Below are positions 27,099 to 61,337 of a stretch of DNA of 64,000 nucleotides, piece by piece. The notes beneath the pieces are model-generated. The model saw only the letters and a list, made by a program, of their open reading frames with translations. It did no database searches and was not told where the DNA came from. A program made the translations under genes and the position numbers. Origin of the DNA: Desulfosalsimonas sp. (GTDB taxonomy: Bacteria > Desulfobacterota > Desulfobacteria > Desulfobacterales > Desulfosalsimonadaceae); assembly GCF_046483245.1 (NCBI RefSeq), contig NZ_JAWODO010000041.1, positions 3,836 to 67,835 on the forward strand. The letters are read 5' to 3'. The stretch's first letter is position 1. Every line of letters starts with the position of its first letter.

Positions 27099-27196
27099 GG
27101 AAGTGCGCAGCTCACTGGTGGGGCTCCCGGACTTCAAATCCGGTGTGGGGCGTTAAAACCGTCCCGGGTGGGTTCGATTCCCATGCACTTCCGCCA
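27099..27196 (+). tRNA. selC: tRNA-Sec (anticodon UCA)
   Basis: 98 nt. It has an 8-bp acceptor stem (GGAAGTGC/GCACTTCC), anticodon loop CT-TCA-AA, a long variable arm, GGTTCGATTCC T-arm and an encoded GCCA end. It is closely collinear with E. coli selC. Confidence 0.93.
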
Positions 27197-28720: not shown

Positions 28721-28751
28721 TTGACGCCCCGGTTTTTTGGAGGCATATAAA
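28721..28751 (+). promoter_or_regulatory. Candidate promoter upstream of the island histidine kinase
   Basis: TTGACG (28721-28726), 17 nt, then CATATA (28744-28749), which overlaps TATAAA. It lies about 80 bp upstream of the ATG at 28829. Confidence 0.3.
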
Positions 28752-28828
28752 GATTCGTTTCATCGATTCATATGTGAAATGAATTCCTGCGTCTTTTTTG
28801 GTCTAATTCAAACCATGGTGTTACCAAA

Positions 28829-31015: not shown

Positions 31016-31029
31016 AGTAAGCCTGCCTT

Positions 31030-31704
31030 ATGAATAAACACCAGGAAAAAAAACGAGTCACAATCTTCATCGTGGATGATCATCCAGTATTTTGCCTTGG
31101 AATGACCGAACTAATAAACAAGGAAAAGGACCTGCAGGTCATTGGCAGTGAGGAAAACGCTCAAATTGCCATCCAAGAGATTGAGAATCAAAAACCTGAT
31201 TTCGTGATTGTAGATATTTCCTTAAAAGACAGTGACGGCATCGACCTGGTCCAGGAACTCAATAGAAGTTATCAGGATCTGCCAGTGCTGGTACTTTCCA
31301 TGTACGATGAGTCGCTTTATGCCGAAAGGGCAATGCTGGCAGGCGCACGTGGATACATAATGAAACAGGAAGCAATACCTGTTGTCGTCAAGGCCATTCG
31401 GCATGTTCTTGCCGGAAATATTTACGCCAGTGAAAAGATAAAAGAAAAAGTATTCCAGCGTCTGGTTACAAAAAAAAAGAAACTTGAGAATAACTTTTCA
31501 CTGGACCTGCTCTCCAACCGGGAACTGGAAGTTTTCCGTCTTACCGGCAAAGGTTTTTCAACAAAGGAAATTGCCGAACAGATGAACCTTTCCCCTAAAA
31601 CAATCGGAACATACCGCGAAAATATAAAGAATAAACTTGACCTTAAACATTACACTGAACTGATCAAATTTGCCGTTCACTGGTCACAGAAAATCGAGTT
31701 TTAG
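31030..31704 (+). CDS. Response regulator, NarL/LuxR family (REC plus LuxR HTH)
   Basis: 'IFIVDDHP', phospho-acceptor 'VIVDISLKDSDG', and 'LSNRELEVFRLTGKGFSTKEIAEQMNLSPKTIGTYRENI'. Confidence 0.92.
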   Translation: MNKHQEKKRVTIFIVDDHPVFCLGMTELINKEKDLQVIGSEENAQIAIQEIENQKPDFVIVDISLKDSDGIDLVQELNRSYQDLPVLVLSMYDESLYAERAMLAGARGYIMKQEAIPVVVKAIRHVLAGNIYASEKIKEKVFQRLVTKKKKLENNFSLDLLSNRELEVFRLTGKGFSTKEIAEQMNLSPKTIGTYRENIKNKLDLKHYTELIKFAVHWSQKIEF

Positions 31705-32041
31705 GTGTAATTCTCACCAAAAGCCCTGATTATATTTTTGGGCGCTGAAGTATCAATATCTACCTGCTTTCGAAAAAATCCCATCCGCGACAAGTCTCGT
31801 AGTTTACGTGTTGCAGTACCCCTGTTTTTATCCCGTCATGCACATAACTCTCTTTTACTGCATAGGCTTAAAACCTAAACAAAGCACCCGGTAAAAGCCT
31901 ACCCGCTATCAGCTTTTCTGCAATTGCATTTTCGGCCATGGGCCTATTGTTTAATGATTTTGCATTGACTAATCTATACCATCAATTAGTCCAACTGCAA
32001 TCCGATTGAACACAAAATACCAATTAAACAGGAGGTAGGCA

Positions 32042-39066: not shown

Positions 39067-39094
39067 AGGGCGGTCTGACAAGACCGCCCTTTGA
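39067..39094 (+). terminator. Rho-independent terminator after the MCP gene
   Basis: AGGGCGGTCT (39067-39076), loop GACA, AGACCGCCCT (39081-39090), then TTTG. Confidence 0.6.
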
Positions 39095-39311
39095 TAAAAT
39101 AAACCGGAGGACAAATCGAGGCGGCACCATCGCTGGGCATGCAGGCAAACACCCATTTCATCCTCGGCATGGCCAAAACCGAATCCGCTGTCAAGATTCT
39201 TCTGGATATCGACAAGGTCTTATCCGCCGAAGAAATGAATGCCCTGACCCGTACCAGCGGATAAACAAAAATAACAGGCGGGTTGTCGAAACCACCCCGG
39301 ATCAACCGGGT

Positions 39312-40388
39312 TTAGGAACGCAGCACGTGGTAGCAGACCACGGGATCCAGCTTGTTTTTCACGTGCACCTGCCCGCGGCATTCAAACGCGAAATTCTCCG
39401 TGTTGGCCAGATAGGTTTGCTCGCCGATGATGATCTCACCACCGGCGGCCATCTGCTCAAGCCTGGCCGCCACGTTGACGCAATCACCGATGACCGTGTA
39501 ATCCATCCGGTTGGCCGATCCGATATTTCCGATAATGGCCGTTCCCGTGTTGATCCCGATGCCGAGTTCAAAATATTCCAATCCGGCGGCCATTCGACGC
39601 CGCCGCATGGCGTCTGTGGCCGCCTGGATTTCAATGGCCGTGCGGATGGCATTGGCCGGCGCATTGCCATCTGTGTCCACCAGGCCGAAGACGGCGATCA
39701 GCTGATCACCCACGAACTTGTCAAGCAGGCCGTTGTTTTTAAAAATAATATCCACCATGACGCTGAAATACTCGTTTAGCATGGCCACCACCTCTTCTGC
39801 GGCCATACGCTCGGCAATGGTGGTAAATGAACGGATATCGGCAAACAGCACAGTGACATTGCGCCGCTCGGTTTCCAGAAAAACCCCTTCCTTGAGGTTA
39901 ATGAGCTTTTCCACGAGGTTGTTGCCCACATACCGACTCAGGCGGTTTCGCAATTGCTCTTCACGCTTGCTGCGCTGATAAGACAGGGCCAGATCCCTGG
40001 CATAGACCATCAACTGGGTGGCCTGTTGCTGGTTTTTGCGATTTAATTCTTCAACCTGCTTTTGCAGCAAATGAAAAGAACCCGCAATGTCGAATAACTC
40101 CCGGTCCGCACGCAGCTCTGTCAACTCCGCTTCTCCCCCCTGCCCGGCCCGGCCGGCGGCCAGCATGAGTTTCCGGATCTGGGATACCAGCCGGCGCAGT
40201 AAAATATAGCCGGAAACCATGCTTGCCAAAGCCAGGGGCAACGCCCAGAGAAGGTCGCCGGCTGGATCAGGGGATAGACGAAATAAGAGAAAAAGCAACA
40301 GAAGAACGGGGAAAATGGCCATCAGCACACCCGCCGCCCGAATCCGGCCAACGGTGCTCAAGTAATTTTTCCGATTCCGCCGGCTCAT
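39312..40388 (-). CDS. Membrane-anchored class III adenylate cyclase (2 TM, HAMP-like/coiled coil, cyclase domain)
   Basis: 'VTVLFADIRSFT', 'DKFVGDQLIAVFG' (the Lys is consistent with ATP specificity), 'GINTGTAIIGNIGS' and 'YTVIGDCVNVAARLE'. Confidence 0.85.
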   Translation of the reverse strand: MSRRNRKNYLSTVGRIRAAGVLMAIFPVLLLLFLLFRLSPDPAGDLLWALPLALASMVSGYILLRRLVSQIRKLMLAAGRAGQGGEAELTELRADRELFDIAGSFHLLQKQVEELNRKNQQQATQLMVYARDLALSYQRSKREEQLRNRLSRYVGNNLVEKLINLKEGVFLETERRNVTVLFADIRSFTTIAERMAAEEVVAMLNEYFSVMVDIIFKNNGLLDKFVGDQLIAVFGLVDTDGNAPANAIRTAIEIQAATDAMRRRRMAAGLEYFELGIGINTGTAIIGNIGSANRMDYTVIGDCVNVAARLEQMAAGGEIIIGEQTYLANTENFAFECRGQVHVKNKLDPVVCYHVLRS

Positions 40389-40876
40389 TCAGGGCATCCG
40401 TTTTCTTCAGGCGCCATGCGCTGAAAATCAAATCCATGGTGAAAGCAAACAGCAATGCCCTGCAAACCGGCATCGGGTTTGGCGCCGCAAGCCTCCGGGC
40501 AGTTGATGCGCACCACGCTTGCCTGGTTTCGGATGCAGGCCTGCACGTCTTCTGCAGCATCGAGCATAATGGCCACATCTATATCCTGGCCCACATGGTA
40601 GCGGTCCGGAAAACTGGACAAAAACAGTGCACCGCTGCCCGATACGTCCTGTAGGCGGGTGACTTCCTTAAAAGGGCGATTTTGGAAATCTTTTCCGGAA
40701 ATCCGTACCGGGAAGGTAATCTGGTAGCGATCAAAAGAGCGCTTATCAAAACTAGTGTCCGGGTCCGGCACCTGAGGAGACAACTGTTTTGGCCGGGTTC
40801 CGGGCAGAATCCGCCGGACAAGTCCCCGTAAACGCGTTTTCAGGGAGTCAAGCAACGGATCGGCTTCCTTTTTCAA
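40385..40876 (-). CDS. PilZ-domain c-di-GMP receptor protein
   Basis: Both PilZ motifs are present: RxxxR ('RSFDR') and DxSxxG ('DVSGSG'). Its stop overlaps the cyclase start by 4 nt. Confidence 0.75.
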   Translation of the reverse strand: MKKEADPLLDSLKTRLRGLVRRILPGTRPKQLSPQVPDPDTSFDKRSFDRYQITFPVRISGKDFQNRPFKEVTRLQDVSGSGALFLSSFPDRYHVGQDIDVAIMLDAAEDVQACIRNQASVVRINCPEACGAKPDAGLQGIAVCFHHGFDFQRMAPEENGCPE

Positions 40877-40887
40877 ATCTCAGGGCA

Positions 40888-43266
40888 TCAGGTGATGCAC
40901 ACCCGGCGCACCTCGCTCATGTCCGTGAATCCGGCAAACATCTTTGCAATGCCATCCTGAACCAGCGTGGTCATACCCTCCTGGCTTGCCTGGTTGAAAA
41001 GCTCTTCAGCACTGGCCTGCCGCTTGATCATCCGCTTGATCGCCTTGGAGCCGTCCATGAGTTCATGGATGCCCATCCGGCCCTTATAGCCGCTGCTGCA
41101 CTGCTCACAGCCTTTGGGCCTGTAGATGGTCAGATCCTCGGTCCAGGTAATGCCGGTTTGCTCAAATGCCGCCTCGCCGTAGATTTCAACAATCTCATCG
41201 AATTCCTCCCGTGTGGGATGATAAGCCTCCCGGCAGTTGGGACACAGGCGGCGCACCAGGCGCTGGGCCAGCACACAGATAAACGCATCGGAAAAATTCA
41301 GGGGATTTAACCCCATGTCCAGAAGTCGGGTCACGGTTTCCGGGGCACTGTTGGTATGCAGGGTGGAAAACACCAGGTGACCGGTCAGGGAGGCCTCCAC
41401 ACCAATGGAAGCGGTTTCGTAATCGCGCATTTCACCGACCATGATAACATCCGGGTCAGCCCGGAGAAACGAACGCATGATACGGGCAAAATCCAGCCCG
41501 ATCTTTTTGTGCACCTCCACCTGGCGCAAGCCCTGCTGGGTAATTTCCACCGGGTCTTCAGCGGTCCAGATCTTGCGCTCGGGAGTATTGATGTGATGCA
41601 GTGCTGAATGCAGGGTTGTGGTTTTACCCGAACCCGTGGGCCCGACGCACAGAATCAGCCCATAGGGCTTGGAAATGCCCCGCCGCATGACTTCAAGATT
41701 GCGCTCGGTCATGCCCATCTCGTCGATTTTCATGGCGCCGGCTGAAGCCAGAAGACGCATTACCGCATCTTCCAGGCCTCCGGCTGTGGGCAGGGTGGCC
41801 ACACGGAGTTCAAACTGAGGCACGCCCCGCCGCCGGAATTTGATTTTTCCATCCTGGGGCATGCGCCGTTCAGCAATATCGAGCCCGGCCATGATCTTGA
41901 TACGGGACAACAAGGCATTGGCAAAGGTATTGGGCACTTCGAGAAAATCCTGGCACACCCCGTCTATGCGAAAACGAATCTTGGTGCGCCGGGTGATGGG
42001 GGATGGTTCCACGTGAACATCCGAGGCGTTTTTCCGGAAAGCCGTGATCAGGGTTTGATCCACCAGCCGGACCACCTTGCCGGAGGCCTCGGTATAGGCT
42101 TCAAAGTCTTCTTCTTCATCCTCTTCTTCGTCGAATTCGATTTCCGGCAGATTTTCAAAGGCCTCAGTAGTGGAAAGGCTGTCCTGTTCAGACTTGGCTG
42201 ATTTTTTCCCAACAAAAAAATGATTAATAATGGCTTCAATGTCTTCCTTGATGCCAACAGAGAAGACAAACTTGCTGGTGTTAAACAGGGCCTTGGCATG
42301 ATCGAGCTTGCGCAGGTCCTTGGGGTCATCGAGCAAGATTTCAATGTGGTCGATTTCCCATTTCAGGGGCACCCATAAGTCCTGGAGCAAAAAGGGCTTT
42401 TTCAGGTTGGCCAGAAGTTCGTAGGGCACCTCCATTTTTGAATTATATTCCTTGAAGGGGCAGTGATAGAACGCGGATAAAGACTTTCCGATCTGCTCCT
42501 TGGGCACCTTGAACTGCTCCATGAGCACCTGTTCCACGCTCTTTTTGAGCTGTTTGGATATGCCCAGGGCCTTCTGAAGCTGATCAGTGGTGACAATCTC
42601 ATTTCGCAGCAGATAATCATAGCGGGATTCATACCGCTCGCCCGGTCCTGCGGAAGCCAGCTTTTCCTTGATTTTGGGGTAGACCGGATCGATTCCCTGA
42701 ACGGATTGGTAACACTCAGCAGCCAGTTCCTTATAATCGCGATGCTCAAATGCCAGGCCGAGCTCGTATTTCATGTCCGCCCGGGTTTTTTCTGAAATCT
42801 GATTTTCCTCGCCGATGGCATCGACGCGCTGGATGACCTCGGTCGGCGGAAACAAAGCAAAAAGGCACTCCAGCAAATCTGCATAAAACTGGTCCACTGG
42901 ATAATCGGCTGAAAAAAGCTTTTGATATTCTTTTACCGCTTCCTTGTACAGGCCCAGTTCCTTGAAGGCCGTGGCGCTGTCATAGACCTCGGGGGCGCTT
43001 TCCCCGAGGGAAAGCCCTGACTTGATGTGAGAGACATCTTCGGTCGACAACTCCTTGGCCACGTCCTGATCCAGGTCCTCGGCCTCCTGACTCAGGGAAT
43101 CGATTTTGCTTTGGATTTCCGCCCTTGTCTCTTCGGTTAAATCAGTAAATGATTCAAGCATATTCCGGTATACGGATATGGCTTCTTCGTATAATCCGTG
43201 GGCTTCGTATGCTTCTGCCACCTTTTGCCGGGAGTCGAAACCGGGTTGTTTTTCCACGGTCTCCAT
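40888..43266 (-). CDS. GspE/PilB-class secretion ATPase with an N-terminal TPR region and a T2SSE_N domain
   Basis: Walker A 'GPTGSGKTT', Asp box/Walker B 'DPDVIMVGEMRD', His box 'LVFSTLHTNSA' and tetra-Cys 'CPNC...CEQC'. The N-terminal roughly 240 aa are TPR-like repeats ('AEAYEAHGLYEEAISVYRNML', 'FKELGLYKEAVKEYQKL', 'LAAECYQSVQGIDP'). The start is taken at the ATG of 'METVEKQ' (43266), which has an AAGGATGGA RBS. Confidence 0.9.
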   Translation of the reverse strand: METVEKQPGFDSRQKVAEAYEAHGLYEEAISVYRNMLESFTDLTEETRAEIQSKIDSLSQEAEDLDQDVAKELSTEDVSHIKSGLSLGESAPEVYDSATAFKELGLYKEAVKEYQKLFSADYPVDQFYADLLECLFALFPPTEVIQRVDAIGEENQISEKTRADMKYELGLAFEHRDYKELAAECYQSVQGIDPVYPKIKEKLASAGPGERYESRYDYLLRNEIVTTDQLQKALGISKQLKKSVEQVLMEQFKVPKEQIGKSLSAFYHCPFKEYNSKMEVPYELLANLKKPFLLQDLWVPLKWEIDHIEILLDDPKDLRKLDHAKALFNTSKFVFSVGIKEDIEAIINHFFVGKKSAKSEQDSLSTTEAFENLPEIEFDEEEDEEEDFEAYTEASGKVVRLVDQTLITAFRKNASDVHVEPSPITRRTKIRFRIDGVCQDFLEVPNTFANALLSRIKIMAGLDIAERRMPQDGKIKFRRRGVPQFELRVATLPTAGGLEDAVMRLLASAGAMKIDEMGMTERNLEVMRRGISKPYGLILCVGPTGSGKTTTLHSALHHINTPERKIWTAEDPVEITQQGLRQVEVHKKIGLDFARIMRSFLRADPDVIMVGEMRDYETASIGVEASLTGHLVFSTLHTNSAPETVTRLLDMGLNPLNFSDAFICVLAQRLVRRLCPNCREAYHPTREEFDEIVEIYGEAAFEQTGITWTEDLTIYRPKGCEQCSSGYKGRMGIHELMDGSKAIKRMIKRQASAEELFNQASQEGMTTLVQDGIAKMFAGFTDMSEVRRVCIT

Positions 43267-43477
43267 GTTTCCATCCTTTTTGATTCGCAAAATATTACAG
43301 GCTGCCGGATCCAAATGCAGCCGCATTTCAACAAAAACAAATTGATCAGGCTTTGCGCCTTTTAAATAGTGCCTGAACGAAAACCGTCTTTTCCGCCAAT
43401 CTCTGCGTCCGGCTCAAATTTTAATCCTCAAAATACGTCGAGTATTCCTGCGGTTAAAATTTTCGCCGTCCTGGACC

Positions 43478-43858
43478 TTAACGAAAAATCCTGGTTTTCG
43501 TTCGGCCACTAAATATCTGGCCGAACTTGCGGCCCGGCTTGATCCGGTCCAGAGAGGGCAGAAGGATCTCGCAGTTGAGCCTTACCATTGAAACCGGGGC
43601 CAGATCATCGAGCAGCACCAGCACATAGCCCGGCTTGGCCTTTCGGACATACAAGCGCTTGCTGTCAAAGACGAATTCGGCCTCACTGATCTCGGATAAT
43701 TCACTGGCAAAAGACGACCAGTCAAACCTGCCAAACCGCGACTGCTCATCACCGTATCCGGAAGAAAACTCACTGGCTACCACCTGCCCGTCTCCGGCAA
43801 AGACGATCACGCCGTGGACGCCTTCGATGGTGATAATATCCCTGAAAATATCTTTCAT
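43478..43858 (-). CDS. Roadblock/LC7-like small protein (second copy in the cluster; MglC/MglB-like)
   Basis: 126 aa. 'IEGVHGVIVFAGDGQVVASEF' and 'YVLVLLDDLAPVSMVRL' follow the Roadblock beta-strand pattern. Confidence 0.55.
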   Translation of the reverse strand: MKDIFRDIITIEGVHGVIVFAGDGQVVASEFSSGYGDEQSRFGRFDWSSFASELSEISEAEFVFDSKRLYVRKAKPGYVLVLLDDLAPVSMVRLNCEILLPSLDRIKPGRKFGQIFSGRTKTRIFR

Positions 43859-43932
43859 TGCCCTTTCCGTGCACCTGATAACGCGTTTGCGTCCCGGCGG
43901 AACCGGCTTTTTTTCAAAATTTTGAAAAACCC

Positions 43933-45039
43933 CTATAGCAGCAGATCAATGATCCGGTCCCGGGACACATCATGGCTCATCCGTATCACGCTCACCTGGC
44001 TGCCCGGCACAATCACCCGCTGGCCCGTGGATTTGTGATTCACATAAACCGCATTGAGCTCTCCGCTGCCGCAAAGTTTTCCAATCCGCGCGGCTTCTTG
44101 CAGAAGACCGGCATACCGCTGATCTTCATATATATCCTCCACTCCGGAAACCTTTCCGAATATGGACTCCAATTTGCTTTGGGACCGCCCTGCATCAGAA
44201 GCCCCTGCGAAATCGGGTTCTTTGCTGTCTCCTGCACCGGAACGGGAACGATCAGTGGCTAACGGTGCATCTTGTTCTTCGGACTGGGTGAAAATGGGGC
44301 TGTCGAGCAAAATCTGGTCATTTGGCGGATTTTCATGGGGCGAAAAATCCGGCCGGTTTTCATCCTTTTGGCGCATGGCGTTTAGCAGCATCGACTGAAG
44401 GCCTCCGTCGATGAGCTTTTCGGTCACCTGGCAAAAATTTTCAATTGTCAGCGACACCCCGGACCAGGAAAGAATTTCATAGGCCGCCTCATGGCCCTGC
44501 CGACCGCCCAGGCGGGCATTGATCAAATCCCCGTCCCTGAAAAACAACACCCCCAGCTGATTGCCGGTCTTGCGGCTCACACGAAGGGTGCAGGTCTGGC
44601 TTTCCATTTCAATGAGCTGCAGAAATGTTTCCAGGGAAACATTGTGCAGGCTGCCGCCTTCCGCCTGAGCTCTAAGTATCCGGTTGATGCGCTCGATCAG
44701 GTCTTCCGTGCTCAAAGGCTTGACCATGTAGTCGCTGGCCCCGCTTTTAAAAACCACCTCCCGGGTCTTGGGACGATCATAGGCGGTGACAATCATCACG
44801 GGAATATCCGGGTAGTCCCGGCTGACCCGGTTTACCAGCTCAAAACCATCGATTCCCGGCATCCGCAAATCACTGACCACGGCGCTGACGTGGTCTGCGG
44901 CCAGCATATCCAGTGCCTCCTGGCCGCTTTCCGTTGTTGCCACTGTAAAAGGCGGGGCATTTTGCTTCAGTTCCTGCTCCATGAGCTGGAGCCAAACCGC
45001 ATCATCATCGACTATGAGCACTTTTGGTGTCATGATCAC
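43933..45039 (-). CDS. Response regulator: REC, DUF4388 (PATAN-like), and a low-complexity/acidic tail
   Basis: REC: 'VLIVDDD', acceptor 'VVSDLRMPGIDG', 'IVTAY' and 'YMVKP'. DUF4388-like: 'GSLHNVSLETFLQLIEMESQTCTLRV...GVLFFRDGDLINARLGGRQGHEAAYEILSW'. Confidence 0.8.
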   Translation of the reverse strand: MIMTPKVLIVDDDAVWLQLMEQELKQNAPPFTVATTESGQEALDMLAADHVSAVVSDLRMPGIDGFELVNRVSRDYPDIPVMIVTAYDRPKTREVVFKSGASDYMVKPLSTEDLIERINRILRAQAEGGSLHNVSLETFLQLIEMESQTCTLRVSRKTGNQLGVLFFRDGDLINARLGGRQGHEAAYEILSWSGVSLTIENFCQVTEKLIDGGLQSMLLNAMRQKDENRPDFSPHENPPNDQILLDSPIFTQSEEQDAPLATDRSRSGAGDSKEPDFAGASDAGRSQSKLESIFGKVSGVEDIYEDQRYAGLLQEAARIGKLCGSGELNAVYVNHKSTGQRVIVPGSQVSVIRMSHDVSRDRIIDLLL

Positions 45040-45097
45040 CTGTTATATGGATTCCGGCGGTTTTCTCCGGTGCCGGCCATTAAAAACCATCGTTGCA

Positions 45098-46132
45098 CTA
45101 CAATCTTATATCAAATGCAGCAATTTCATCAGCGAATTCCCTGCGCCAGACTTCGAGATTTTTCTGGAGCCGAACCAGCAAACCGTGGCTTTCAGCGATC
45201 TCCGTGACACATTCCGCTACTGCGGCTACCAGCTTTCCATAATCGGCGCTTCCGCTAAACTGCGCCTTGCCCTCGGAATACCTGAATTCCGCGGCAAACG
45301 GATCCAGAAATTCATATTTGTCCACATTTTCCACAAACTTGCGGTTCAGCAGGGTTTCGAAATCGCCTTTGATTTTCCGGTTAGACCGCACCAAGGATTC
45401 CAGGGCGTATAACAACCCTCCCAGCATCTCCATGACCCGGGCCGAACCGATCTTTACCTCCCGGGAACCGGAATCGGCTTTGCTGCTGTCCCTGACCCGT
45501 TCCGGAGGCGATATTTTGGCTGCCTCGGGCTCATCCAGCATCACCCGGCTGACGTTAAAATTGCCGCCATGTTTCTTGGACCGTTGAATCAGGTCCTGCC
45601 GGTACTGCTCGGAGCGGTCCAGGTTGCCGGCACCGTCAGCCGAAGAGCCTCCGATGACTTCCCCCTTGTAAATAAACAGCAGGCCGCCCTGGGCGTTTTT
45701 GACCTCCACGTCAATATAGCCGGTGAACTTTTCCGCCTCCAGTTTTCGAATCAATCCCTCAAGATTGGTAAACTCGGAGGTCAAATCCGCATACACCACC
45801 TTTGATTTCGGCAGATTGGCCCAGAAATAGAGTCGCTCCGGCAGGATTCGATAAACCGAAATGGTAAAATTGTTTCGGCCTGCGCCTTCAACAACGCGCT
45901 CAACAGCATCCGTGCCGTGAAAATGCTGCCGCCGGTGGTCCAAAAATCCGTTGACAATGCTTTGCTCGTCAAAAAAAAGCACCGCCTCGGAAACCGGAGA
46001 CTGAAAATGGACCACGCCGGCACCCACCTCGCCCTGGTAATGTTCAATGAGCCTGGCAATATCAACGTAGTAGCTGTTTAAATTTTCAACAACCGGCTTT
46101 TCTCTGGGAATCAGAAACATTTCTTTTTCCAC
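45098..46132 (-). CDS. Hypothetical protein, possibly two DUF4388/PATAN-like repeats plus a helical C-terminus
   Basis: Intact 344-aa ORF with backbone-like codon usage. 'FTGYIDVEVKNAQGGLLFIYKGEVIGG' resembles the DUF4388 core. No catalytic motif was seen. Confidence 0.5.
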   Translation of the reverse strand: MEKEMFLIPREKPVVENLNSYYVDIARLIEHYQGEVGAGVVHFQSPVSEAVLFFDEQSIVNGFLDHRRQHFHGTDAVERVVEGAGRNNFTISVYRILPERLYFWANLPKSKVVYADLTSEFTNLEGLIRKLEAEKFTGYIDVEVKNAQGGLLFIYKGEVIGGSSADGAGNLDRSEQYRQDLIQRSKKHGGNFNVSRVMLDEPEAAKISPPERVRDSSKADSGSREVKIGSARVMEMLGGLLYALESLVRSNRKIKGDFETLLNRKFVENVDKYEFLDPFAAEFRYSEGKAQFSGSADYGKLVAAVAECVTEIAESHGLLVRLQKNLEVWRREFADEIAAFDIRL

Positions 46133-46251
46133 ATTGTATTGTTAACGATCTTCAGTTACGGCAATGATACGGCCGCAGACAAAGCAAACAGGCAATGCGC
46201 CGGCACGGGCGGGCGCATCGCCCTCATAATTTGCCTTGCCCGAATCCCGGC

Positions 46252-47451
46252 CTACCTGCGCCTTCTGAGCCGCTCAATGGAAAACCGCAAACTGTCCTGC
46301 ATCCGGGAGATCGCTTCAGCCAAACTGCCGATTTCATCTTTGGAGCGCACTTCGATCTCAGCTTCCAGATCCCCGACGCTGATGCGGTCTGCCGCCTCGG
46401 TCAGATAGCGAATCTTGCGGGTCAGGCGGTATCCATAAACAATAATACAAAAACCAATAATCAGGATCGAGCCGCCCAGAATCCCGAGGTTGATATTGCG
46501 GGTCTCCATTGTCATCTGCTCGGCATTTTCGCGCAGGCCCTCGGTTCTTTCCGTAAATTCGTCCATGTAGGCGGTGGCCTCCAGTTGAAACTTTTTGCCC
46601 TCGATGTTGATGGGGACGATTGCCATGTATTTTTCCCTCAGGTCACCGTCTGCGTCCTTCCACATATATGTCCCGGCGGCCTCCTTTCTGCCCCAGGAAT
46701 TTTCCATGAGCTCCCACCATTCCTCAAAATACGGGCCCAATGCTTTGCGCAGGGTGTCGTCGGTATTCGGTATGCCGATCAGATTCGGATTGGGGTGCGC
46801 CCATAGAGTGAAGTCCCGGTCCGCAGTTTCCTCTTCGCTCAAACAGGTGTAACCGCTTTCACCAACGGCTTGCACGGCAATCTGATTGAAAGTGGGATCG
46901 TAGCTGAAATCCTCACGTTCAAGCTCCGGATGCGTGCGCAGATAAATTTCGCACTGCAAAGCCACATCCCGGGCTTTTTGAAGCAGCTGATCCTTACCGG
47001 CCTCGGCAACCAATTCGGTGCTCTGATCGGTAATCTCCGTGGTCAGCTTGTCGATCTGCATGTATGAGAAATAGCCCGAAACCGCCATCAGGATAACCGG
47101 TATGACCAGAAAGAGGAAAAACATCTTGCCGCGCAACCCGATCCATCCGCCGGAAGAAAAATCACCCCCTGAATAATCCGGGCCTCCGGCTGCAGTCGAA
47201 GGCTCTTCTTCGCCCGGCTGTGCCAGGGATGGTCCGGCATCTTCCGCATCCTCCGGGGGTGCGTCGGCAGTCGCATAGGAAGGTTCGGAATAGGTTTCCT
47301 CGGGCAATTCCGTGGTTTCCATCAACCTGGACAGCTGGGTCACATGGCCGCATTCCCCGCACCGGACACGTATACTTTGGCCTCTATAGCGCTCAAGCTT
47401 ATCCGGATCCAGATGATAAACCTTTCCGCATTCCTCGCAAATCACCGTCAT
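46252..47451 (-). CDS. MJ0042-type zinc-ribbon, TM, extracytoplasmic (Cache-like) domain, TM and a HAMP-only protein
   Basis: 'VICEECGKVYHL...VRCGECGHV' (2 x CxxC), two TM segments and a terminal HAMP 'TRKIRYLTEAADRISVGDLEAEIEVRSKDEIGSLAEAISRM'. Nothing follows the HAMP. Confidence 0.7.
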   Translation of the reverse strand: MTVICEECGKVYHLDPDKLERYRGQSIRVRCGECGHVTQLSRLMETTELPEETYSEPSYATADAPPEDAEDAGPSLAQPGEEEPSTAAGGPDYSGGDFSSGGWIGLRGKMFFLFLVIPVILMAVSGYFSYMQIDKLTTEITDQSTELVAEAGKDQLLQKARDVALQCEIYLRTHPELEREDFSYDPTFNQIAVQAVGESGYTCLSEEETADRDFTLWAHPNPNLIGIPNTDDTLRKALGPYFEEWWELMENSWGRKEAAGTYMWKDADGDLREKYMAIVPINIEGKKFQLEATAYMDEFTERTEGLRENAEQMTMETRNINLGILGGSILIIGFCIIVYGYRLTRKIRYLTEAADRISVGDLEAEIEVRSKDEIGSLAEAISRMQDSLRFSIERLRRRR

Positions 47452-47552
47452 GATCTATCCTCCTCGGTCAATTGTTGGCAGCATGAAATAAAATCATTTT
47501 CCTTTATCTCCAAAGGAATTCTTTTCTTGTTCCGCAAGGGACCAATCCCGGA

Positions 47553-48026
47553 CTATGTCTGGATTTCCCGCAGCTTTTTGACCATGGCCTGCTGAAAGGC
47601 CACTTTTCTTTCCTCGCGCAAAATCTGGCGAGCCAGCAAGTCCACTAGCTCGGCTGCCCTATGGGCAGGGAACCGGTTGGCCGTCTCCCCCATCTCCCGG
47701 ATCTCATCTTCGATCACCACGTCCGCAATGGGCCCCATGGCCCGGGAAAGCTGGGAGGAGAGAAAATCAAGAAAATCCTTTCCCAGGACCGGCATGCTAT
47801 CCTGGGCCGGTTCGCAGAGTTTCAGCTGATGAAGCTTCTGGACCACGCCACGAAGGTCCTTCATGCTCATCTGCAGAGACTGGGCCACCTCACTGAGCCT
47901 CTTTTTACCGTCGAGTTCCATAAGCACCTGCAACATCTGACTGTCGAGGGAAACCTCGCCCAGGTCGGCCCGCAGGCTTCGTTTCAATACCATCCCGGAA
48001 ATATCACCTGAAAAAACAGCTGTCAT
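47553..48026 (-). CDS. Hypothetical protein (157 aa; winged-helix-like N-terminal half)
   Basis: Intact ORF inside the co-directional cluster. 'QVLMELDGKKRLSEVAQSLQMSMKDLRGVVQKLHQLKL' is HTH-like. No family was recognised. Confidence 0.45.
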   Translation of the reverse strand: MTAVFSGDISGMVLKRSLRADLGEVSLDSQMLQVLMELDGKKRLSEVAQSLQMSMKDLRGVVQKLHQLKLCEPAQDSMPVLGKDFLDFLSSQLSRAMGPIADVVIEDEIREMGETANRFPAHRAAELVDLLARQILREERKVAFQQAMVKKLREIQT

Positions 48027-48068
48027 GCAATGCCTCCGTTTCGAAGGAAGATGTGTTCATTCCCTGGG

Positions 48069-48671
48069 TTACGCACCGAGATTCTTGATGATTTGCTGGA
48101 TGACCTGCAGTTCCGACTTGATGGTTTTCCTCAGCTCTCCAACGATATAATCCAGGGCCTCCTGATTTTCCAGCACGGCCGCAGGGCTGTTCCCGGTTTT
48201 CCCGGAAACCTTTTGACTCCCGGCTGGTTCCGGGGTAAGCACCCGCTTCTTGAATTCCTTGAATCTTTTGACATCTGCGGAAAGCAGGCGTTTTTTCTCT
48301 TTTTCCGGCATTTCCGGACGGGCCAGAACGGTTTCAAAGTTTTTGAACACGTCTGCCACAAAACCGATGGCCTCCGGGTGCGCCTTGGCCTTTTTGGCCT
48401 TGATGTATTTGCCAACGGCTTCCTGGAGCTTTAAAAACATGGAAACGATTTTGTCGTCCTGGTAGGTCTCCTGCAACCGACGAATCTCTTTTAAAAAAGC
48501 CCCCATGCTTTCGTCTGAAATCTCCCAGTCAATCCCGGCCACCAGCGCACTGAGCTCACGGACAGGGGAATTTTGCTCATCAAACCCGGCATCCTCGTCT
48601 TCGCCAAACATTTCCTCGAGCCGGCTGGAAACTTCTTCGCCCAGGCCCTCATCATCTTCCGTGCGATTCAA
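48069..48671 (-). CDS. Hypothetical acidic/coiled-coil protein (200 aa)
   Basis: Starts 11 bp after the mglA-like stop. It has a very acidic N-terminus ('EDDEGLGEE...FGEDEDAGFDEQ') and a Lys-rich helical centre. Confidence 0.45.
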   Translation of the reverse strand: MNRTEDDEGLGEEVSSRLEEMFGEDEDAGFDEQNSPVRELSALVAGIDWEISDESMGAFLKEIRRLQETYQDDKIVSMFLKLQEAVGKYIKAKKAKAHPEAIGFVADVFKNFETVLARPEMPEKEKKRLLSADVKRFKEFKKRVLTPEPAGSQKVSGKTGNSPAAVLENQEALDYIVGELRKTIKSELQVIQQIIKNLGA

Positions 48672-48682
48672 TGATTTTCCTC

Positions 48683-49288
48683 CTATTGCAGTTTTTTCCG
48701 CAGGGAACTGACAGTCAGTGCGATAATTTTTTTCATGGTGGCGGCCACATTATCGCCCCGGATGGCGCTGGCCGGGAAATAAGGGGCGTTTAATCTGGAG
48801 TTCAAATCCTTCTGCAGAGTTTCCCCCGAGAGAATGGGGATGCCTTCATCGGCGAGATCCCGCTTGTTGTACTGCATCACCAGCGGAATGTTAAAAATGT
48901 TTTTATTGAAGGTCTCCAGGTTTTCCTTTAGGTTCTGCAGGGAGCGAATATTCATCTCCCGCCGCAAATCCATGGAATCAGCCACAAAAACAATGCCGTC
49001 AACGCCCCGCAGCACCAGGCGGCGGGTGGCATTGTATTTCACCTGACCGGGGACTGTGTAGAGCTGGATCTTAATGCTGTGTCCCTTGATTTCGCCGATG
49101 TCAAATGGGAGAAAGTCAAAAAACAGAGTCCGGTCACCATAAGTTTTCACCGTGACCATCTCATTTAAAATCCGTTTTTTGAATTTGCGGTTGATATATT
49201 CGAGGTTCGTGGTCTTGCCGCCGCGGCCCGGGCCGTAGTAAACGATCTTGACCTGGACCTCCCGCTTTTTCGGATTAATTAACGCCAA
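48683..49288 (-). CDS. mglA: MglA-family Ras-like small GTPase
   Basis: P-loop 'YYGPGRGGKTTN', 'DRTLFFDFLP' (the intrinsic Arg region of MglA), 'YTVPGQVKY' and 'QYNKRDL'. All are collinear with Myxococcus MglA motifs. Confidence 0.9.
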   Translation of the reverse strand: MALINPKKREVQVKIVYYGPGRGGKTTNLEYINRKFKKRILNEMVTVKTYGDRTLFFDFLPFDIGEIKGHSIKIQLYTVPGQVKYNATRRLVLRGVDGIVFVADSMDLRREMNIRSLQNLKENLETFNKNIFNIPLVMQYNKRDLADEGIPILSGETLQKDLNSRLNAPYFPASAIRGDNVAATMKKIIALTVSSLRKKLQ

Positions 49289-49372
49289 ATCACCTTCCTC
49301 CGCAACCCTTTAGGTTTTCTCCACTGCCATTATATTTCCCGAATATGCGCGTTCATAGTCCCCGCAACGACA

Positions 49373-49765
49373 TTAAATCAACGTCTGAATGCGCTTGATG
49401 GCCTCGGCTACTTTCAATCGCAGAAATCCCAGAGAAACATCCCGGTTGAAAATGGTCAAAAGCAGCAAATCCTCCACCACCTTGCTGAAATGGATGCTTT
49501 CTTTTTCCCCCTTGTGAAACAACAGGGAAAATTCCTGCTCCCCGATGATATTGGCCATGGCGCTGACCGCCCCGTAATTGCCCGCCGCCAGTGCAGCCAG
49601 GGAAAACACGTCGTGATTGGCATGCCCGTTGTCAAGATTGACAATTACATTGCCGGCCAGATCCATCAGGATGACACTCTGCACCCCCAGATCGATCAAC
49701 TCCTGCTGCAGCACATCTTCAATGGATTCGATCTGTTCCTTGGTGAAATCGATTGTAAAATCCAT
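49373..49765 (-). CDS. mglB: Roadblock/LC7 protein (MglB-like GAP candidate)
   Basis: 130 aa. 'GVQSVILMDLAGNVIV', 'AALAAGNYGA' and 'LLTIFNRDVSLGFLRL' are typical Roadblock blocks. It lies immediately upstream of the mglA-like gene, as in the Myxococcus mglBA operon. Confidence 0.75.
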   Translation of the reverse strand: MDFTIDFTKEQIESIEDVLQQELIDLGVQSVILMDLAGNVIVNLDNGHANHDVFSLAALAAGNYGAVSAMANIIGEQEFSLLFHKGEKESIHFSKVVEDLLLLTIFNRDVSLGFLRLKVAEAIKRIQTLI

Positions 49766-49898
49766 TTACGGTTACCCCTTGCCTTCCAAATTGATATGCA
49801 CCCTTCCCCCCAATGCCGGAATTCGCTAATGCCCGCAATTTGTCCGGCGCGCTGTTTTTTTTGCATAAACTCTTTTCTTATATAACAATGATTTACCC

Positions 49899-49926
49899 GA
49901 ATCAATGAGAAAATGCCCATTGATTC
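49899..49926. promoter_or_regulatory. Inverted repeat upstream of the mglB-like operon (candidate operator)
   Basis: GAATCAATG (49899-49907), a 10-nt spacer, then CATTGATTC (49918-49926). The arms are a perfect 9-bp match. It lies about 135-160 bp upstream of the mglB-like start on the minus strand. Confidence 0.35.
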
Positions 49927-50046
49927 TATGCGGTCTTTTATCCTTATCTCAGTGGATTTCTGTTTAAGAATCAATAACATATTCTCAGTTCCGAATGCAA
50001 GCAGGAAAGGAAGATCATTTGTGGCATCATGGGGCAGGCGTTGCCG

Positions 50047-58743: not shown

Positions 58744-59519
58744 GGCGCTGCATCCGTATTGCCGGGCAGTTCCGGGGAAAAGGCCCGGGCCGGTACGGCC
58801 GCATCCGCCCAGCAGCGCTCCACGCTCACCGACAGGCGATGGCCCGCTGCATCAGAGATCTGAAGTTCAAAGGGCATATCTCGTCCATCTGCAGACCGCA
58901 CCTCAAGGATTTCCGCCCGATAGGCAGTCCCCTGCCAGGTAAACATTTCCACTTCCCGAACACTGATGGGTTCAGTGGAAAACCGGATGCGCTGTACGGT
59001 TCCGGAAAACCGTTTTTTGAGCACCAGCATTGGATCACCGCCAAGCATTTGATAGGCGGCAGCCGTGTCATGATCCGCTATGGGAACCCCGCCGCCGAGC
59101 AGCAGTGCAAGATCATCCACATCAATATCCACCCCGGCAAGCCGGCCCAGGCTTCGCCGACCGGTATCCCTGCGCCGGACCTCCCCGTCTTCCGGAAAGT
59201 GGAAGGAGCACAAATCCGGGCCGCAGATAATCTTGACAAAGGGCTGGCCGGCAAGGCCCATGGCTTCAATCCGGAAACGCCCCCCTGGCGCGCCAAGCCA
59301 CGCCGCACGAACAGACCATGAACCGCTGTCATCGTCCACTCCGATTCGGCCGACGGCCTTATAGGGGGTCATTGCCTCATTTGCTTCCTGGATACGGGCA
59401 AGAAGGGATTCGGCTTTTCCCGCTTCCATCCGGGAAACGGCAGACGGCGGAGGTTTTTCCACAGAAGCGCAGGCCCCTGTGAGCAGAATCAAAAACAGCG
59501 CAATCAGGCGGCCCTTCAA
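58740..59519 (-). CDS. Outer-membrane lipoprotein, LolB/DUF4292-like
   Basis: Lipobox 'LLTGAC', size and a beta-rich sequence. It has 4-nt overlaps with both neighbouring genes. Confidence 0.55.
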   Translation of the reverse strand: MKGRLIALFLILLTGACASVEKPPPSAVSRMEAGKAESLLARIQEANEAMTPYKAVGRIGVDDDSGSWSVRAAWLGAPGGRFRIEAMGLAGQPFVKIICGPDLCSFHFPEDGEVRRRDTGRRSLGRLAGVDIDVDDLALLLGGGVPIADHDTAAAYQMLGGDPMLVLKKRFSGTVQRIRFSTEPISVREVEMFTWQGTAYRAEILEVRSADGRDMPFELQISDAAGHRLSVSVERCWADAAVPARAFSPELPGNTDAAP

Positions 59520-61333: not shown

Positions 61334-61337
61334 GATG

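Follow-up and report, generated by a model that had tools for sequence, protein, structure and literature searches.

A predicted operon of the Desulfobacterales that combines an MglA/MglB switch with a TPR-carrying PilB-class ATPase

Eleven co-directional genes of a sulfate reducer probably constitute a vertically inherited Desulfobacterales operon, in which an MglA/MglB switch and its adaptors would control a PilB-class ATPase that carries a TPR domain. The genes lie in a 64,000-nucleotide stretch of Desulfosalsimonas sp. DNA (the window), where eleven minus-strand open reading frames fill positions 39312-49765, as the original prediction had listed them. The locus thereby unites a polarity switch, adaptors, and a TPR-bearing ATPase of the pilus-motor type, parts that are dispersed in Myxococcus. 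Most likely, the ATPase works at a type IV filament platform whose genes lie elsewhere and is gated there by MglA-GTP together with the PATAN adaptors. The genes in order of transcription, with the domains of the ATPase and the flanking elements, are predicted as follows.

49766..50046, minus strand: region upstream of g01, after purB; 281 nt, with one sigma-70-like site at 49952-49923
49373..49765, minus strand: g01, MglB-like Roadblock/LC7 protein, 130 aa (Pfam Robl_LC7 1.2e-8)
48683..49288, minus strand: g02, MglA-family small GTPase, 201 aa (PDB matches, motifs)
48069..48671, minus strand: g03, protein X, 200 aa; acidic N-terminal motif RLEEMFGE, helical-bundle core, C-terminal helix
47553..48026, minus strand: g04, winged-helix-like protein, 157 aa (HTH_47)
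46252..47451, minus strand: g05, membrane sensor, 399 aa (Zn_ribbon_4, HAMP)
45098..46132, minus strand: g06, PATAN-like protein, 344 aa ORF, probable start M5 at 46120 (weak DUF4388, hhalign)
43933..45039, minus strand: g07, response regulator REC-PATAN (DUF4388), 368 aa ORF (Response_reg 3e-27, DUF4388 2.7e-14)
43478..43858, minus strand: g08, second, divergent Roadblock-like protein, 126 aa ORF (weak Robl_LC7, hhalign)
40888..43266, minus strand: g09, TPR-MshEN-like-PilB-class hexameric ATPase, 792 aa from M21; the ORF reaches 43326 (T2SSE 3e-120)
42649..43239, minus strand: TPR-like helical-repeat domain of g09, ORF residues ~30-226 (AlphaFold2, Foldseek)
42181..42618, minus strand: MshEN/GSPII-like N-terminal domain of g09, ORF residues ~237-382 (Pfam MshEN 4.5e-7)
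40903..42087, minus strand: ATPase core of g09, N2 and C-terminal domain (Pfam T2SSE, residues 414-808)
40385..40876, minus strand: g10, PilZ-domain protein, 163 aa ORF, TTG start (PilZ 1e-5)
39312..40388, minus strand: g11, class III adenylate cyclase, membrane-anchored, 358 aa (Guanylate_cyc 8.8e-30; 4-nt overlap with g10)
39067..39090, minus strand: terminator-like hairpin 3' of g11, where g11 converges with a plus-strand MCP gene; 10-bp stem, 7 GC pairs, T-rich tail (consensus match)

Spacing within the cluster is less uniform than the "short gaps or 4-nt overlaps" first described: the overlap between g10 and g11 is the only one, and the remaining intergenic gaps measure 11-211 nt. The PilZ gene begins 11 nt past the ATPase stop codon, and the gaps above 100 nt are of 101, 119-131, and 211 nt, the last of these preceding g09, where relatives have 9-348 nt. 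The g09 start is most likely M21 (43266; 792 aa), because homologues start there and the gene call in Desulfosalsimonas propionicica agrees, and the true starts of g06 and g07 are probably 4 and 2 codons further in, respectively. D. propionicica, to which the window is ~95% identical, carries the same cluster, with a g10 of 156 aa. The sigma-70-like site upstream of g01 is weak (9/12 match), the 281-nt region that contains it matched no Rfam family, and no sigma-54-like -24/-12 element was found there or in any internal gap.

The original prediction had proposed conservation of the gene neighborhood as a check, and the cluster proved strongly syntenic. Genes g01-g08 lie upstream of the ATPase in identical order in 36/36 close species genomes with enough contig, the ATPase is followed by PilZ and cyclase genes in 39/39 close species genomes, and g01-g08 occur in order in 11/21 distant genomes, 17 of these 21 having MglA within 10 kb upstream of the ATPase; these counts are biased by the choice of the majority of loci via the ATPase. 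Three isolates chosen via MglA (D. propionicica, Desulfoluna limicola, and Desulfobotulus mexicanus) carry the same operon. The flanks differ by genome (purB/amiC here, purC in Desulfoluna, others in L002 and L053), and gene order and strand are kept where protein identity falls to ~55% for the ATPase and ~30% for protein X. With order retained in close and distant genomes while the flanks differ, the association of these genes exceeds chance.

More distant Desulfobacterales keep genes 1-9 or have compact forms such as MglB-MglA-X-ATPase (loci L065, L074, and L077). Further variants are MglA, a PATAN protein with two cNMP-binding domains, and the ATPase (L060); an HD-GYP-type protein, MglA, and the ATPase (L052); and a REC-REC-PATAN protein, a ParA-like protein, MglA, and the ATPase (L067), so that MglA and the TPR-ATPase stay paired while the surrounding genes vary. 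Because these distant loci retain genes 1-9 or compact forms, PilZ and the cyclase, which the original prediction had counted as part of the cluster and which are indeed present here, are lineage-specific additions confined to the Desulfosalsimonas-like branch and not core members. PilZ was not detected in 28 distant loci and was found in 39/39 close ones; add-on genes differ in other branches, and Desulfoluna and Desulfobotulus have one or two PilZ genes after the ATPase. Some TPR-long ATPases of this clade have REC-PAS or Che genes beside them and no MglA nearby (L076, L079, L082, and L057), so that a TPR domain is no specific mark of MglA linkage.

These additions and alternative partners of the ATPase clade, the gaps above 100 nt, and weak sigma-70-like sites inside the cluster could be taken to mean that separate units lie side by side, with an MglA/MglB polarity module, the PATAN/REC regulators, and an ATPase-PilZ-cyclase group each transcribed separately. 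We regard this as highly improbable, given that order and strand withstand the sequence divergence described above amid differing flanks, that the compact and other variants retain MglA beside the ATPase, and that no strong terminator was found inside the cluster.

Profile searches upheld nearly all of the domain assignments made initially, those of g06 as PATAN-like and g08 as Roadblock only weakly. The g01 protein scores 2e-16 against the NCBIfam MglB model, under the model cutoff, and all of its significant PDB matches are MglB (M. xanthus, 2.3e-15; Thermus, 9e-10), which identifies it as an MglB homologue; its identity among close relatives is 84-100%. The alignment covers MglB residues 11-125 of 160, indicating that the MglB C-terminal helix is missing from g01. 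The most conserved gene of the cluster is g02 (88-98% in close relatives), whose product matches M. xanthus MglA (7.9e-51; 48% identity) and Thermus MglA (1.3e-50) over the full length, the next match being Rab at 1e-7. The motifs GPGRGGKTTN, DRTLFFDF (Arg finger), TVPGQ, and NKRD are kept in 57 orthologues. As originally proposed, g02 thus groups with MglA and has all the motifs; it is a GTPase of the MglA family that brings its own Arg finger and its own catalytic Gln. The g08 protein is a tentative Roadblock member: the window protein matches Robl_LC7 with an E value of 0.011, 13/34 family members match (best 3e-4), hhalign relates the family to that of g01 (E 9e-4 over 92 columns), and a PDB profile search returned no significant match. 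It is 121-122 aa long in most relatives, and its gene lies directly 5' of the ATPase in 69 loci.

The two PATAN candidates differ in the clarity of their assignment. In g07, a predicted phosphorylatable receiver domain is joined to a PATAN domain, followed by a linker of low complexity and a C-terminal region that is conserved; the acidic pocket DDD, the phospho-acceptor D57, T85, and K107 are kept in 63 orthologues. The g06 window protein reaches an E value of 0.055 against DUF4388, 18/34 family members match (best 3e-5), and hhalign aligns its residues 124-169 to the g07 PATAN domain (136-182; E 2.3e-4). A PDB profile search with g06 gave no match and the Desulfoluna orthologue carries a match described as "PatA_N (faint)", so that g06 may be called PATAN-like only weakly. 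PATAN-cNMP-binding proteins are encoded beside the cluster in relatives.

Protein X matched nothing in Pfam or NCBIfam, and its 67 homologues, all annotated as hypothetical, all belong to the Desulfobacterales. Its gene is always downstream of mglA. An AlphaFold2 model is all helical over residues 38-145 (pLDDT ~90). A CheA P1/HPt identity is not supported: that domain is the best Foldseek match (E 0.1), but the match is not significant and the candidate His is not conserved. In L065, L077, P0161, and P0162, protein X is fused to a TM-TM-HAMP module, which links X to a g05-type sensor. In g05, an N-terminal CxxC...CxxC zinc ribbon is followed by an acidic linker, a TM segment, a Cache-like extracytoplasmic domain, a second TM segment, and HAMP, without an output domain (HAMP 2e-14, Zn_ribbon_4 7e-8, MJ0042_CXXC 2.5e-4). 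The L051 orthologue consists of Zn_ribbon_4, dCache_1, and HAMP, with dCache_1 in the middle, and the cysteines and HAMP are kept in 47 orthologues. HTH_47 matches occur in 34/34 members of the g04 family (best 2.9e-5; the window protein, 6e-4, is under the cutoff), and PF26309 (DUF8082) is precomputed on the g04 orthologues of L001 and L086-L088.

The ATPase itself is, by sequence, a complete PilB-class motor with intact catalytic motifs and a TPR domain N-terminal to the motor. Among 71 orthologues, the conserved elements are Walker A (GPTGSGKTT) and Walker B (DPDVIMVGEMRD), the Asp and His boxes (His box, TGHLVFSTLHTN), and the tetracysteine motif. The fusion of TPR to a GspE/PilB-class ATPase, already recognized in the original prediction, was confirmed by structure prediction: AlphaFold2 models the roughly 200 residues as 11 helices (pLDDT mostly 80-90), for which Foldseek retrieves consensus TPR proteins (8chy, 1.6e-5) and the OGT TPR domain, and Pfam TPR matches that are sub-threshold in g09 recur in homologues. 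Foldseek matches of the MshEN-like domain include Thermus PilF GSPII-B (2e-5, with 8pe0 among the matches), V. cholerae MshE-N (5htl, 1.8e-4, TM 0.69), and the X. citri PilB-N/PilZ complex (7lko, 5.5e-4). The c-di-GMP motif is absent from this domain, R1, G3, G10, and Q24 being replaced (family consensus S-K-Y...x...S).

PilB scores slightly above GspE for g09. The NCBIfam models give 502 bits for PilB (cutoff 675.65) and 475 bits for GspE (cutoff 630.25), both sub-cutoff, and the PDB matches are M. xanthus PilB (7e-106, residues 218-786), Geobacter PilB (2e-102), and GspE (1e-98). The near equality of these scores, with which the earlier GspE/PilB-class call is consistent, would suit a GspE-type ATPase under polarity control whose output is polar secretion through a T2SS encoded elsewhere. 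That interpretation is improbable: PilB outscores GspE in both searches, only PilB spans the MshEN-like domain (query 218-786), the known partners MglA, SgmX-type TPR, PATAN, and PilZ all act on T4P ATPases, and gsp genes are absent nearby.

PilB-type motors normally require a PilC/PilM platform. As first reported, pilus, secretin, and Agl/Glt genes are not nearby: T4P/T2SS machinery genes were absent from the ~46 ORFs scanned of roughly 54 in the window; PilC/GspF, pilin, PilM-Q, PilT, and secretin genes were found neither in the window nor beside ~88 loci of the g09 ATPase clade; and Agl/Glt genes were not found near the cluster. A filament output is consequently purely inferred. The original prediction of a self-contained GTPase-gated ATPase module of unknown output could be framed as a non-pilus process, or as a signaling or scaffolding ATPase partnered by the proteins of the operon. 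Consistent with this, ~88 loci from many species lack adjacent pilus or secretion machinery while signaling genes are always adjacent, the ATPase scores under the equivalog cutoffs for both PilB and GspE, its MshEN domain has lost the canonical c-di-GMP site, and several proteins of the operon are family specific (protein X, g04, and g06 in its C-terminal half). We consider a non-pilus output unlikely, and the self-contained description is not supported. The ATPase is a complete PilB-type motor, which aligns end-to-end over residues 218-786 with M. xanthus and Geobacter PilB (E ~1e-102 to 1e-106) and keeps every motif as well as the Zn finger. Every characterized member of this ATPase class known to us drives either a type IV filament or a T2SS machine. 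Moreover, regulator-only operons distant from pilus genes are normal in T4P control (mglBA, frz, and pil-chp), and MglA, PATAN, and PilZ are each documented as PilB regulators.

The lineage-specific genes would add nucleotide signals. In g10, the canonical c-di-GMP motifs RxxxR (RSFDR) and DxSxxG (DVSGSG) are at least 90% conserved among 43 orthologues. The g11 protein, whose N-terminus has two hydrophobic segments by inspection, retains adenylate-cyclase residues that are conserved in 38 orthologues: Asp residues for the metal (FADI, GDQ), Lys (DKFVGD) and Asp (GDCVN) for adenine specificity, and Asn/Arg (VNVAARLE).

In the favored mechanism, control of a type IV filament motor by the GTPase switch, g01 would act as a GAP that switches MglA off. 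MglA-GTP would engage the ATPase, the TPR domain serving in cis the role that SgmX plays in trans in Myxococcus, and the PATAN domains of g06 and g07 may contact the ATPase, by analogy with Synechocystis. Together, g08 and the REC-PATAN protein g07 could represent a positioning or exchange side of the switch with an MglC/RomR-like role, receiving phosphorylation input from a kinase encoded elsewhere. The zinc-ribbon-Cache-HAMP sensor g05, with X, would anchor the module at the membrane and feed in an extracytoplasmic signal. In the Desulfosalsimonas lineage, PilZ, responding to c-di-GMP, may dock on the MshEN-like domain, and the cyclase may add a cAMP signal read by PATAN-cNMP-binding proteins. 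The output would be timed or localized extension of a type IV filament, the PilC/PilM platform being encoded elsewhere in the genome.

The suggestion that the system is undescribed stands for the operon and not for its logic. The literature search found no paper describing the operon, and the Desulfobacterales unit, the TPR-ATPase fusion, and protein X are apparently unpublished. The components, and the links between pairs of them, are in the literature: proximity of mglAB to PATAN genes (PMC4316618), binding of PilB1 and PilC by the PATAN domain (bioRxiv 10.1101/2021.06.11.447907), and recruitment of PilB by MglA-GTP via the TPR protein SgmX (PMC7519303; PMC11580455). The locus is therefore a new arrangement of known logic and not a new kind of system.

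A close parallel in components is the MglA/MglB/MglC/RomR/RomX-SgmX-PilB module of M. xanthus. Both have an MglA-family GTPase whose Arg finger is intrinsic, with an MglB homologue beside it, and both add another Roadblock paralogue, a protein with a receiver domain, a TPR module, and an ATPase of the PilB class; the published logic of the M. xanthus module runs from GTPase-GTP through TPR to the extension ATPase (PMC7519303; PMC11580455). In contrast to the scattered Myxococcus genes, the parts lie in one predicted operon here, and TPR is fused to the ATPase whereas SgmX is a separate 1,000-residue protein. Moreover, the MglB C-terminal helix is missing from g01, the identity of g02 to M. xanthus MglA is only 48%, the PATAN domain of g07 means that the RomR architecture is lacking, and RomX, FrzS, and SopA homologues were not identified here, while X, the winged-helix protein, the ZnR-Cache-HAMP sensor, PilZ, and the cyclase are extra.

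Cyanobacterial PatA-type PATAN-REC proteins that bind PilB1 and PilC (Synechocystis PixE and PixG among them) likewise combine PATAN with a CheY-like receiver and have a genetic tie to a PilB-type ATPase; PATAN/GspE_N co-occurrence and MglAB-PATAN neighborhoods have been noted (10.1101/2021.06.11.447907). However, the domain order is reversed in g07 (REC then PATAN), a second PATAN-like protein lacks a receiver, an MglA/MglB switch is present, and no Tax/Pix chemosensory operon provides the input. V. cholerae MshE, Thermus PilF, and the Xanthomonas FimX-PilZ-PilB system are examples of pilus ATPases under c-di-GMP control, to which the locus is related by the MshEN/GSPII fold of its ATPase N-domain and by its PilZ gene directly 3' of the ATPase, but the c-di-GMP motif residues of MshEN are not conserved here. 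To our knowledge, Xanthomonas PilZ does not bind c-di-GMP, whereas RxxxR and DxSxxG are retained in g10, and no FimX-like protein is present.

The g05 N-terminus recalls GltJ/ZitP, with a ~40-residue CxxC...CxxC zinc ribbon, a flexible acidic linker, and a membrane span, the ribbons being likened at the level of Pfam families. However, g05 lacks a GYF domain and continues into a Cache-like sensor and HAMP. The GltJ zinc ribbon binds MglB and its linker binds MglA-GTP (PMC11135422), but the MglB C-terminal helix bound by the ribbon is missing from g01. As for gene neighborhoods, mglA, mglB, and PATAN genes were already known to be co-located in some MglA systems of groups 1 and 5 (PMC4316618). 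The clade described here has a fixed order of 9-11 genes ending in an ATPase. MglA/MglB-PATAN gene neighborhoods were reportedly noted by Makarova et al. in 2006. The order found here differs from the survey of Wuichet and Sogaard-Andersen (2015), which recorded no conserved neighborhood for group 1 and no ATPase linkage (PMC4316618).

The analysis shows a coherent, vertically inherited gene unit, a predicted operon, that ties an MglA/MglB switch to a PilB-class motor. The eleven minus-strand open reading frames at 39312-49765 lie in the order given by the original prediction and encode an MglB-like protein (g01), an MglA-family GTPase (g02), a protein of 200 amino acids termed X (g03), a winged-helix-like protein (g04), a zinc-ribbon/HAMP sensor (g05), a PATAN-like protein (g06; PATAN is Pfam DUF4388), a REC-PATAN protein (g07), a Roadblock-like protein (g08), a TPR-ATPase (g09), a PilZ protein (g10), and a cyclase (g11). 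The one 4-nt overlap within the cluster joins the PilZ and cyclase genes, and the gaps measure 11, 11, 42, 58, 74, 84, 101, 119, and 151 nt. The last of these, which precedes the ATPase gene, becomes 211 nt because ATPase homologues start at M21 of the open reading frame; the Desulfosalsimonas propionicica ATPase gene is called at 792 amino acids. The same strand carries purB, amiC, and mutS 5' of the cluster, separated from it by a 281-nt gap, and a dCache methyl-accepting chemotaxis protein (MCP) gene is convergent with the cluster at its downstream end. Searches for a sigma-54 promoter upstream of g01 and of the ATPase gene, and for Rfam elements in the cluster, found none, and one strong hairpin was located:

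39067-39090: strong terminator-like hairpin, downstream of the cluster

The window is core chromosome and carries dnaB, hflX, dnaA, alaS, recA, and mutS. Across 20 kb its nucleotide identity with D. propionicica (GCA_013761005.1) is about 94-95%, and all eleven genes recur in that genome. Several features of the surrounding sequence were recorded in passing. A cheW remnant at 39103-39261 (plus strand) codes only for residues 116-168 of D. propionicica CheW; in that genome CheW comes after the dCache MCP gene, and ~354 bp of the corresponding locus (L086, 20149-20503) are absent from the window. A tRNA-Sec gene at 27099-27192 is followed by a low-GC stretch at 28000-32000 (0.43, vs. about 0.55 elsewhere), which codes for a dCache-HAMP-PAS histidine kinase and a LuxR-type response regulator and may be an acquired segment. 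The full-length DnaA-type gene (DnaA_N, Bac_DnaA, DnaA_C) at 8016-9452 (minus strand) has no adjoining dnaN; dnaB and hflX lie 2.5-6 kb from it, and cumulative GC skew does not turn anywhere in the window. Two further minus-strand genes, at 61341-62342 and 59519-61363, comprise a sigma-70-family gene and, immediately downstream of it, a gene for a 615-aa protein consisting almost entirely of TPR repeats, which, as far as was checked, bears no relation to the cluster.

A scan of one genome per GTDB species, using the TPR/MshEN part of the ATPase as query, found 240 genomes with a relative; the 80 top-scoring genomes were all of Desulfobacterales type. These 80, comprising 46 close and 34 distant genomes, formed the synteny set, in which counts were limited to loci with enough contig. 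Genes g01-g08 occur in order in all 36 of the 46 close genomes that have enough upstream sequence, and the PilZ and cyclase genes follow the ATPase in all 39 with enough downstream sequence. Among the 34 distant genomes, g01-g08 were found in order in 11 of 21 and MglA was present in 17 of 21, while no PilZ/cyclase pair was found. Genes flanking the operon vary by lineage. Most loci were picked through the ATPase; the operon was also present in all three isolates picked by MglA similarity (D. propionicica, Desulfoluna limicola, and Desulfobotulus mexicanus). Conservation of the neighborhood of the ATPase and the mglA-like gene, proposed with the original prediction as a check on the association, was found across species genomes. 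In variant operons, MglA stays beside the TPR-ATPase while other parts change:

Variant operons
MglB-MglA-X-ATPase
MglA, PATAN with two cNMP-binding domains, ATPase
HD-GYP-type protein, MglA, ATPase
REC-REC-PATAN, ParA-like protein, MglA, ATPase
PAS-HisKA proteins or a hybrid kinase inserted

ATPases of a sister clade (585-727 aa, TPR domain short or absent), together with some that have a long TPR domain, lack an adjoining MglA, and the TPR domain also occurs outside MglA-linked operons. The gene after a sister-clade ATPase always encodes a REC-PAS protein of ~265 aa, and MCP, CheW, and CheA often accompany it (loci L003, L084, L085, L057, L076, L079, L064, and L050); L050 and L064 combine the REC-PAS arrangement with PATAN/Mgl genes.

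Both members of the predicted switch proved to be what the original prediction had named them, an MglA-like GTPase with MglA motifs and an MglB-like Roadblock protein. Over its full length, g02 matches MglA of Myxococcus xanthus (7.9e-51; 48% identity) and Thermus (1.3e-50) in the PDB, with Rab next at 1.4e-7, and is nearest to MglA, not to Ras, Rab, or Arf. Alignment to M. xanthus MglA revealed all of the hallmarks, namely the switch I arginine finger DRTLFFDF, YTVPGQ (catalytic Gln present, G3 Asp absent), GPGRGGKTTN, and NKRD, each at least 90% conserved among 57 orthologues. The g01 protein matches Robl_LC7 (Pfam, 1.2e-8), and its eight best PDB matches, the sole significant solved relatives, are all MglB (2e-15 to 1e-8). 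Coupling of MglA systems has been judged by the presence of an mglB gene within four genes (PMC4316618), a distance within which g01 falls, lying 84 nt upstream of g02 on the same strand. The aligned span covers residues 11-125 of the 160 in MglB, and g01 stops at residue 130, so that it differs from M. xanthus MglB in lacking the C-terminal extension and helix.

A second paralogue of MglA has 216 aa, shares 56% identity with g02, and in Desulfoluna carries S in place of the arginine-finger R. It was observed a few kilobases upstream of the main operon together with a PATAN and cNMP-binding protein and a small PilZ protein (L087, 4637-8061, of Desulfoluna limicola AP024488.1; L088, 1-788). At L060 (7499-9922), MglA of this second type and a PATAN-cNMP protein directly precede the TPR-ATPase. 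Both Desulfoluna limicola and Desulfobotulus mexicanus carry, a few kilobases upstream, an additional PilZ gene and a gene for a PATAN-cNMP-binding protein, accompanied in Desulfoluna by the second paralogue. It is possible that the PATAN-cNMP-binding protein beside the MglA paralogue reads cAMP made by g11.

The ATPase has the architecture of PilB, with an N-terminal GSPII/MshEN domain, N2, and CTD. Residues 218-786 can be aligned along their whole length with PilB of M. xanthus (7e-106; residues 8-557 of 566) and of Geobacter, and GspE falls slightly behind PilB in the PDB search. Scores against the equivalog models were below cutoff both for type IVa PilB (TIGR02538, 502.2 bits vs. 675.65) and for GspE (TIGR02533, 475.5 bits vs. 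630.25), and an exact-sequence look-up returned no identical record. The Walker A and B motifs, Asp box, His box, and tetracysteine Zn site are conserved among 71 orthologues. The first 395 residues, modeled with AlphaFold2 (pLDDT 78), contain eleven helices that match TPR proteins in Foldseek, which bears out the TPR module originally assigned to this protein. The domain that follows these helices matches the GSPII-B domain of Thermus PilF (8pe0, 2e-5), MshE-N of Vibrio cholerae (5htl, 1.8e-4, TM 0.69), and the N-domain of Xanthomonas citri PilB in its complex with PilZ; Pfam likewise reports MshEN at 4.5e-7.

Direct reception of c-di-GMP by the ATPase through this MshEN domain was considered and rejected, since the motif residues are not conserved. 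The MshEN c-di-GMP motif, reportedly described by Wang and colleagues in 2016, is RLGxxLLxxGLLxxxxLxxALxxQ with conserved R, G, G, and Q. The family consensus at this position is S-K-Y-D-Y-L-L-R-x-x-I-V-T-T-x-Q-L-Q-K-A-L-A-L-S, in which all four of these residues are substituted and the hydrophobic positions alone are retained, and the score against the NCBIfam c-di-GMP motif model was 21.9 bits (cutoff 38).

The two genes downstream of the ATPase point to cyclic nucleotides. The g10 protein matches PilZ (Pfam, 1e-5) and contains RxxxR (RSFDR) and (D/N)xSxxG (DVSGSG), each at least 90% conserved among 43 orthologues; it is a PilZ protein and a predicted c-di-GMP receptor. The g11 protein matches Guanylate_cyc (Pfam, 8.8e-30), and its alignment conserves two metal-binding Asp residues, an adenine-specifying Lys/Asp pair, and transition-state Asn/Arg, roles assigned by analogy with the class III cyclase family. 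Judged by these residues, it is a class III cyclase, predicted to be of adenylate type.

The REC-PATAN protein g07 contains a receiver domain (Response_reg, 3e-27; residues 7-119) with an intact phospho-acceptor site, followed by PATAN (DUF4388, 2.7e-14; residues 129-228). PatA-type regulators also combine the two domains but in a different order, with PATAN N-terminal and REC C-terminal (10.1101/2021.06.11.447907). Two further calls of the original prediction, a second Roadblock protein (g08) and a PATAN-like protein (g06), held weakly. Robl_LC7 was matched in 13 of 34 members of the g08 family (best 3e-4; 0.011 for the window protein), and its profile aligned with that of the g01 family at an hhalign E of 9e-4; PATAN-like matches occurred in 18 of 34 members of the g06 family, with an hhalign E of 2e-4 against the g07 PATAN domain. 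Family profiles of g08, g06, and g04 retrieved nothing significant from PDB sequences. An all-against-all hhalign comparison of the operon families linked g01 with g08 and g06 with g07, both weakly, and, doubtfully, the C-terminus of g07 with g08; no other links emerged. Conserved C-terminal regions lacking a family match were seen in the last ~80 residues of g07 (43933-44170), which align weakly with the g08 Roadblock-like family (hhalign E 0.006), and in the C-terminal half of g06 (45098-45530).

All 34 members tested of the g04 family are winged-helix-like, and g05 consists of a zinc ribbon, a TM segment, a Cache-like domain, a second TM segment, and HAMP. X is a helical, family-specific protein. 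Its identity as a histidine phosphotransfer protein was rejected; the best Foldseek matches, to CheA P1, reached an E of 0.1, and the position of the candidate His varies, with H in 34 sequences, L in 19, and Q in 3. Compact operons encode X joined to two TM helices and HAMP in a single protein (L065, 3491-4543; L077, 8532-9602; homologues P0161 and P0162), a Rosetta-stone fusion that links X to membrane sensors of the g05 type.

Genes for a PilC/GspF platform, PilM-Q, pilin, or secretin, whose absence from the window was originally noted, and for PilT were found neither in the window nor in the flanks of about 88 loci. One reading of the operon is that of a self-contained, polarity-gated motor: the TPR-PilB-like ATPase, served by MglA/MglB, PATAN, Roadblock, and X proteins of its own, would drive some non-pilus machine or process of Desulfobacterales that has yet to be described. 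We consider this unlikely; if true, the PilB/GspE ATPase class would gain a function outside type IV filaments and a new use as a motor. The preferred reading, in which the ATPase serves a type IV filament platform encoded elsewhere, draws its mechanism from published precedents. In Myxococcus, MglA-GTP works via SgmX, a TPR protein, in recruiting PilB to the base of the pilus (PMC7519303; PMC11580455). The PATAN domain of PatA-type regulators of Synechocystis binds PilB1 and PilC (10.1101/2021.06.11.447907), and PATAN genes sometimes adjoin mglAB genes (PMC4316618). A Xanthomonas PilZ protein docked on the PilB N-domain (7lko) is the precedent for the PilZ step. ZitP/GltJ-type zinc ribbons and their linkers bind MglB and MglA-GTP (PMC11135422), an analogy that we retain only as a lead because the GltJ ribbon binds the MglB C-terminal helix that g01 lacks. 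From these precedents, we infer that MglA-GTP and the PATAN proteins would set when and where the ATPase engages the platform, that the MglB-like protein, a putative GAP, would turn MglA off, and that the TPR domain fused to the ATPase would take the role of SgmX. The proposed modulators are phosphorylation, c-di-GMP, cAMP, and an extracytoplasmic signal.

Pairwise links among these components have been described, and our literature search turned up no account of the operon itself, a fusion of TPR to PilB, or protein X. The operon defines uncharacterized families (X, DUF8082, and the g06 type) and occurs in the cultured strains Desulfosalsimonas propionicica, Desulfoluna limicola, Desulfoluna spongiiphila, and Desulfobotulus mexicanus; it is therefore open to experiment. 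It gathers known regulators of pilus ATPases, namely MglA/B, PATAN, a receiver, PilZ/c-di-GMP, and a source of cAMP, which suggests how such inputs are combined. According to a 2024 paper on SopA, direct interaction between SgmX and PilB has not been detected (PMC11580455). The natural TPR-PilB fusion adjoins mglBA in many Desulfobacterales genomes; it constitutes Rosetta-stone evidence for the TPR module and the ATPase functioning as one unit and offers a simpler system for testing the step from MglA-GTP/SgmX to PilB. The operon is best filed as a variant on a known theme, that of a small-GTPase polarity switch controlling a pilus ATPase.
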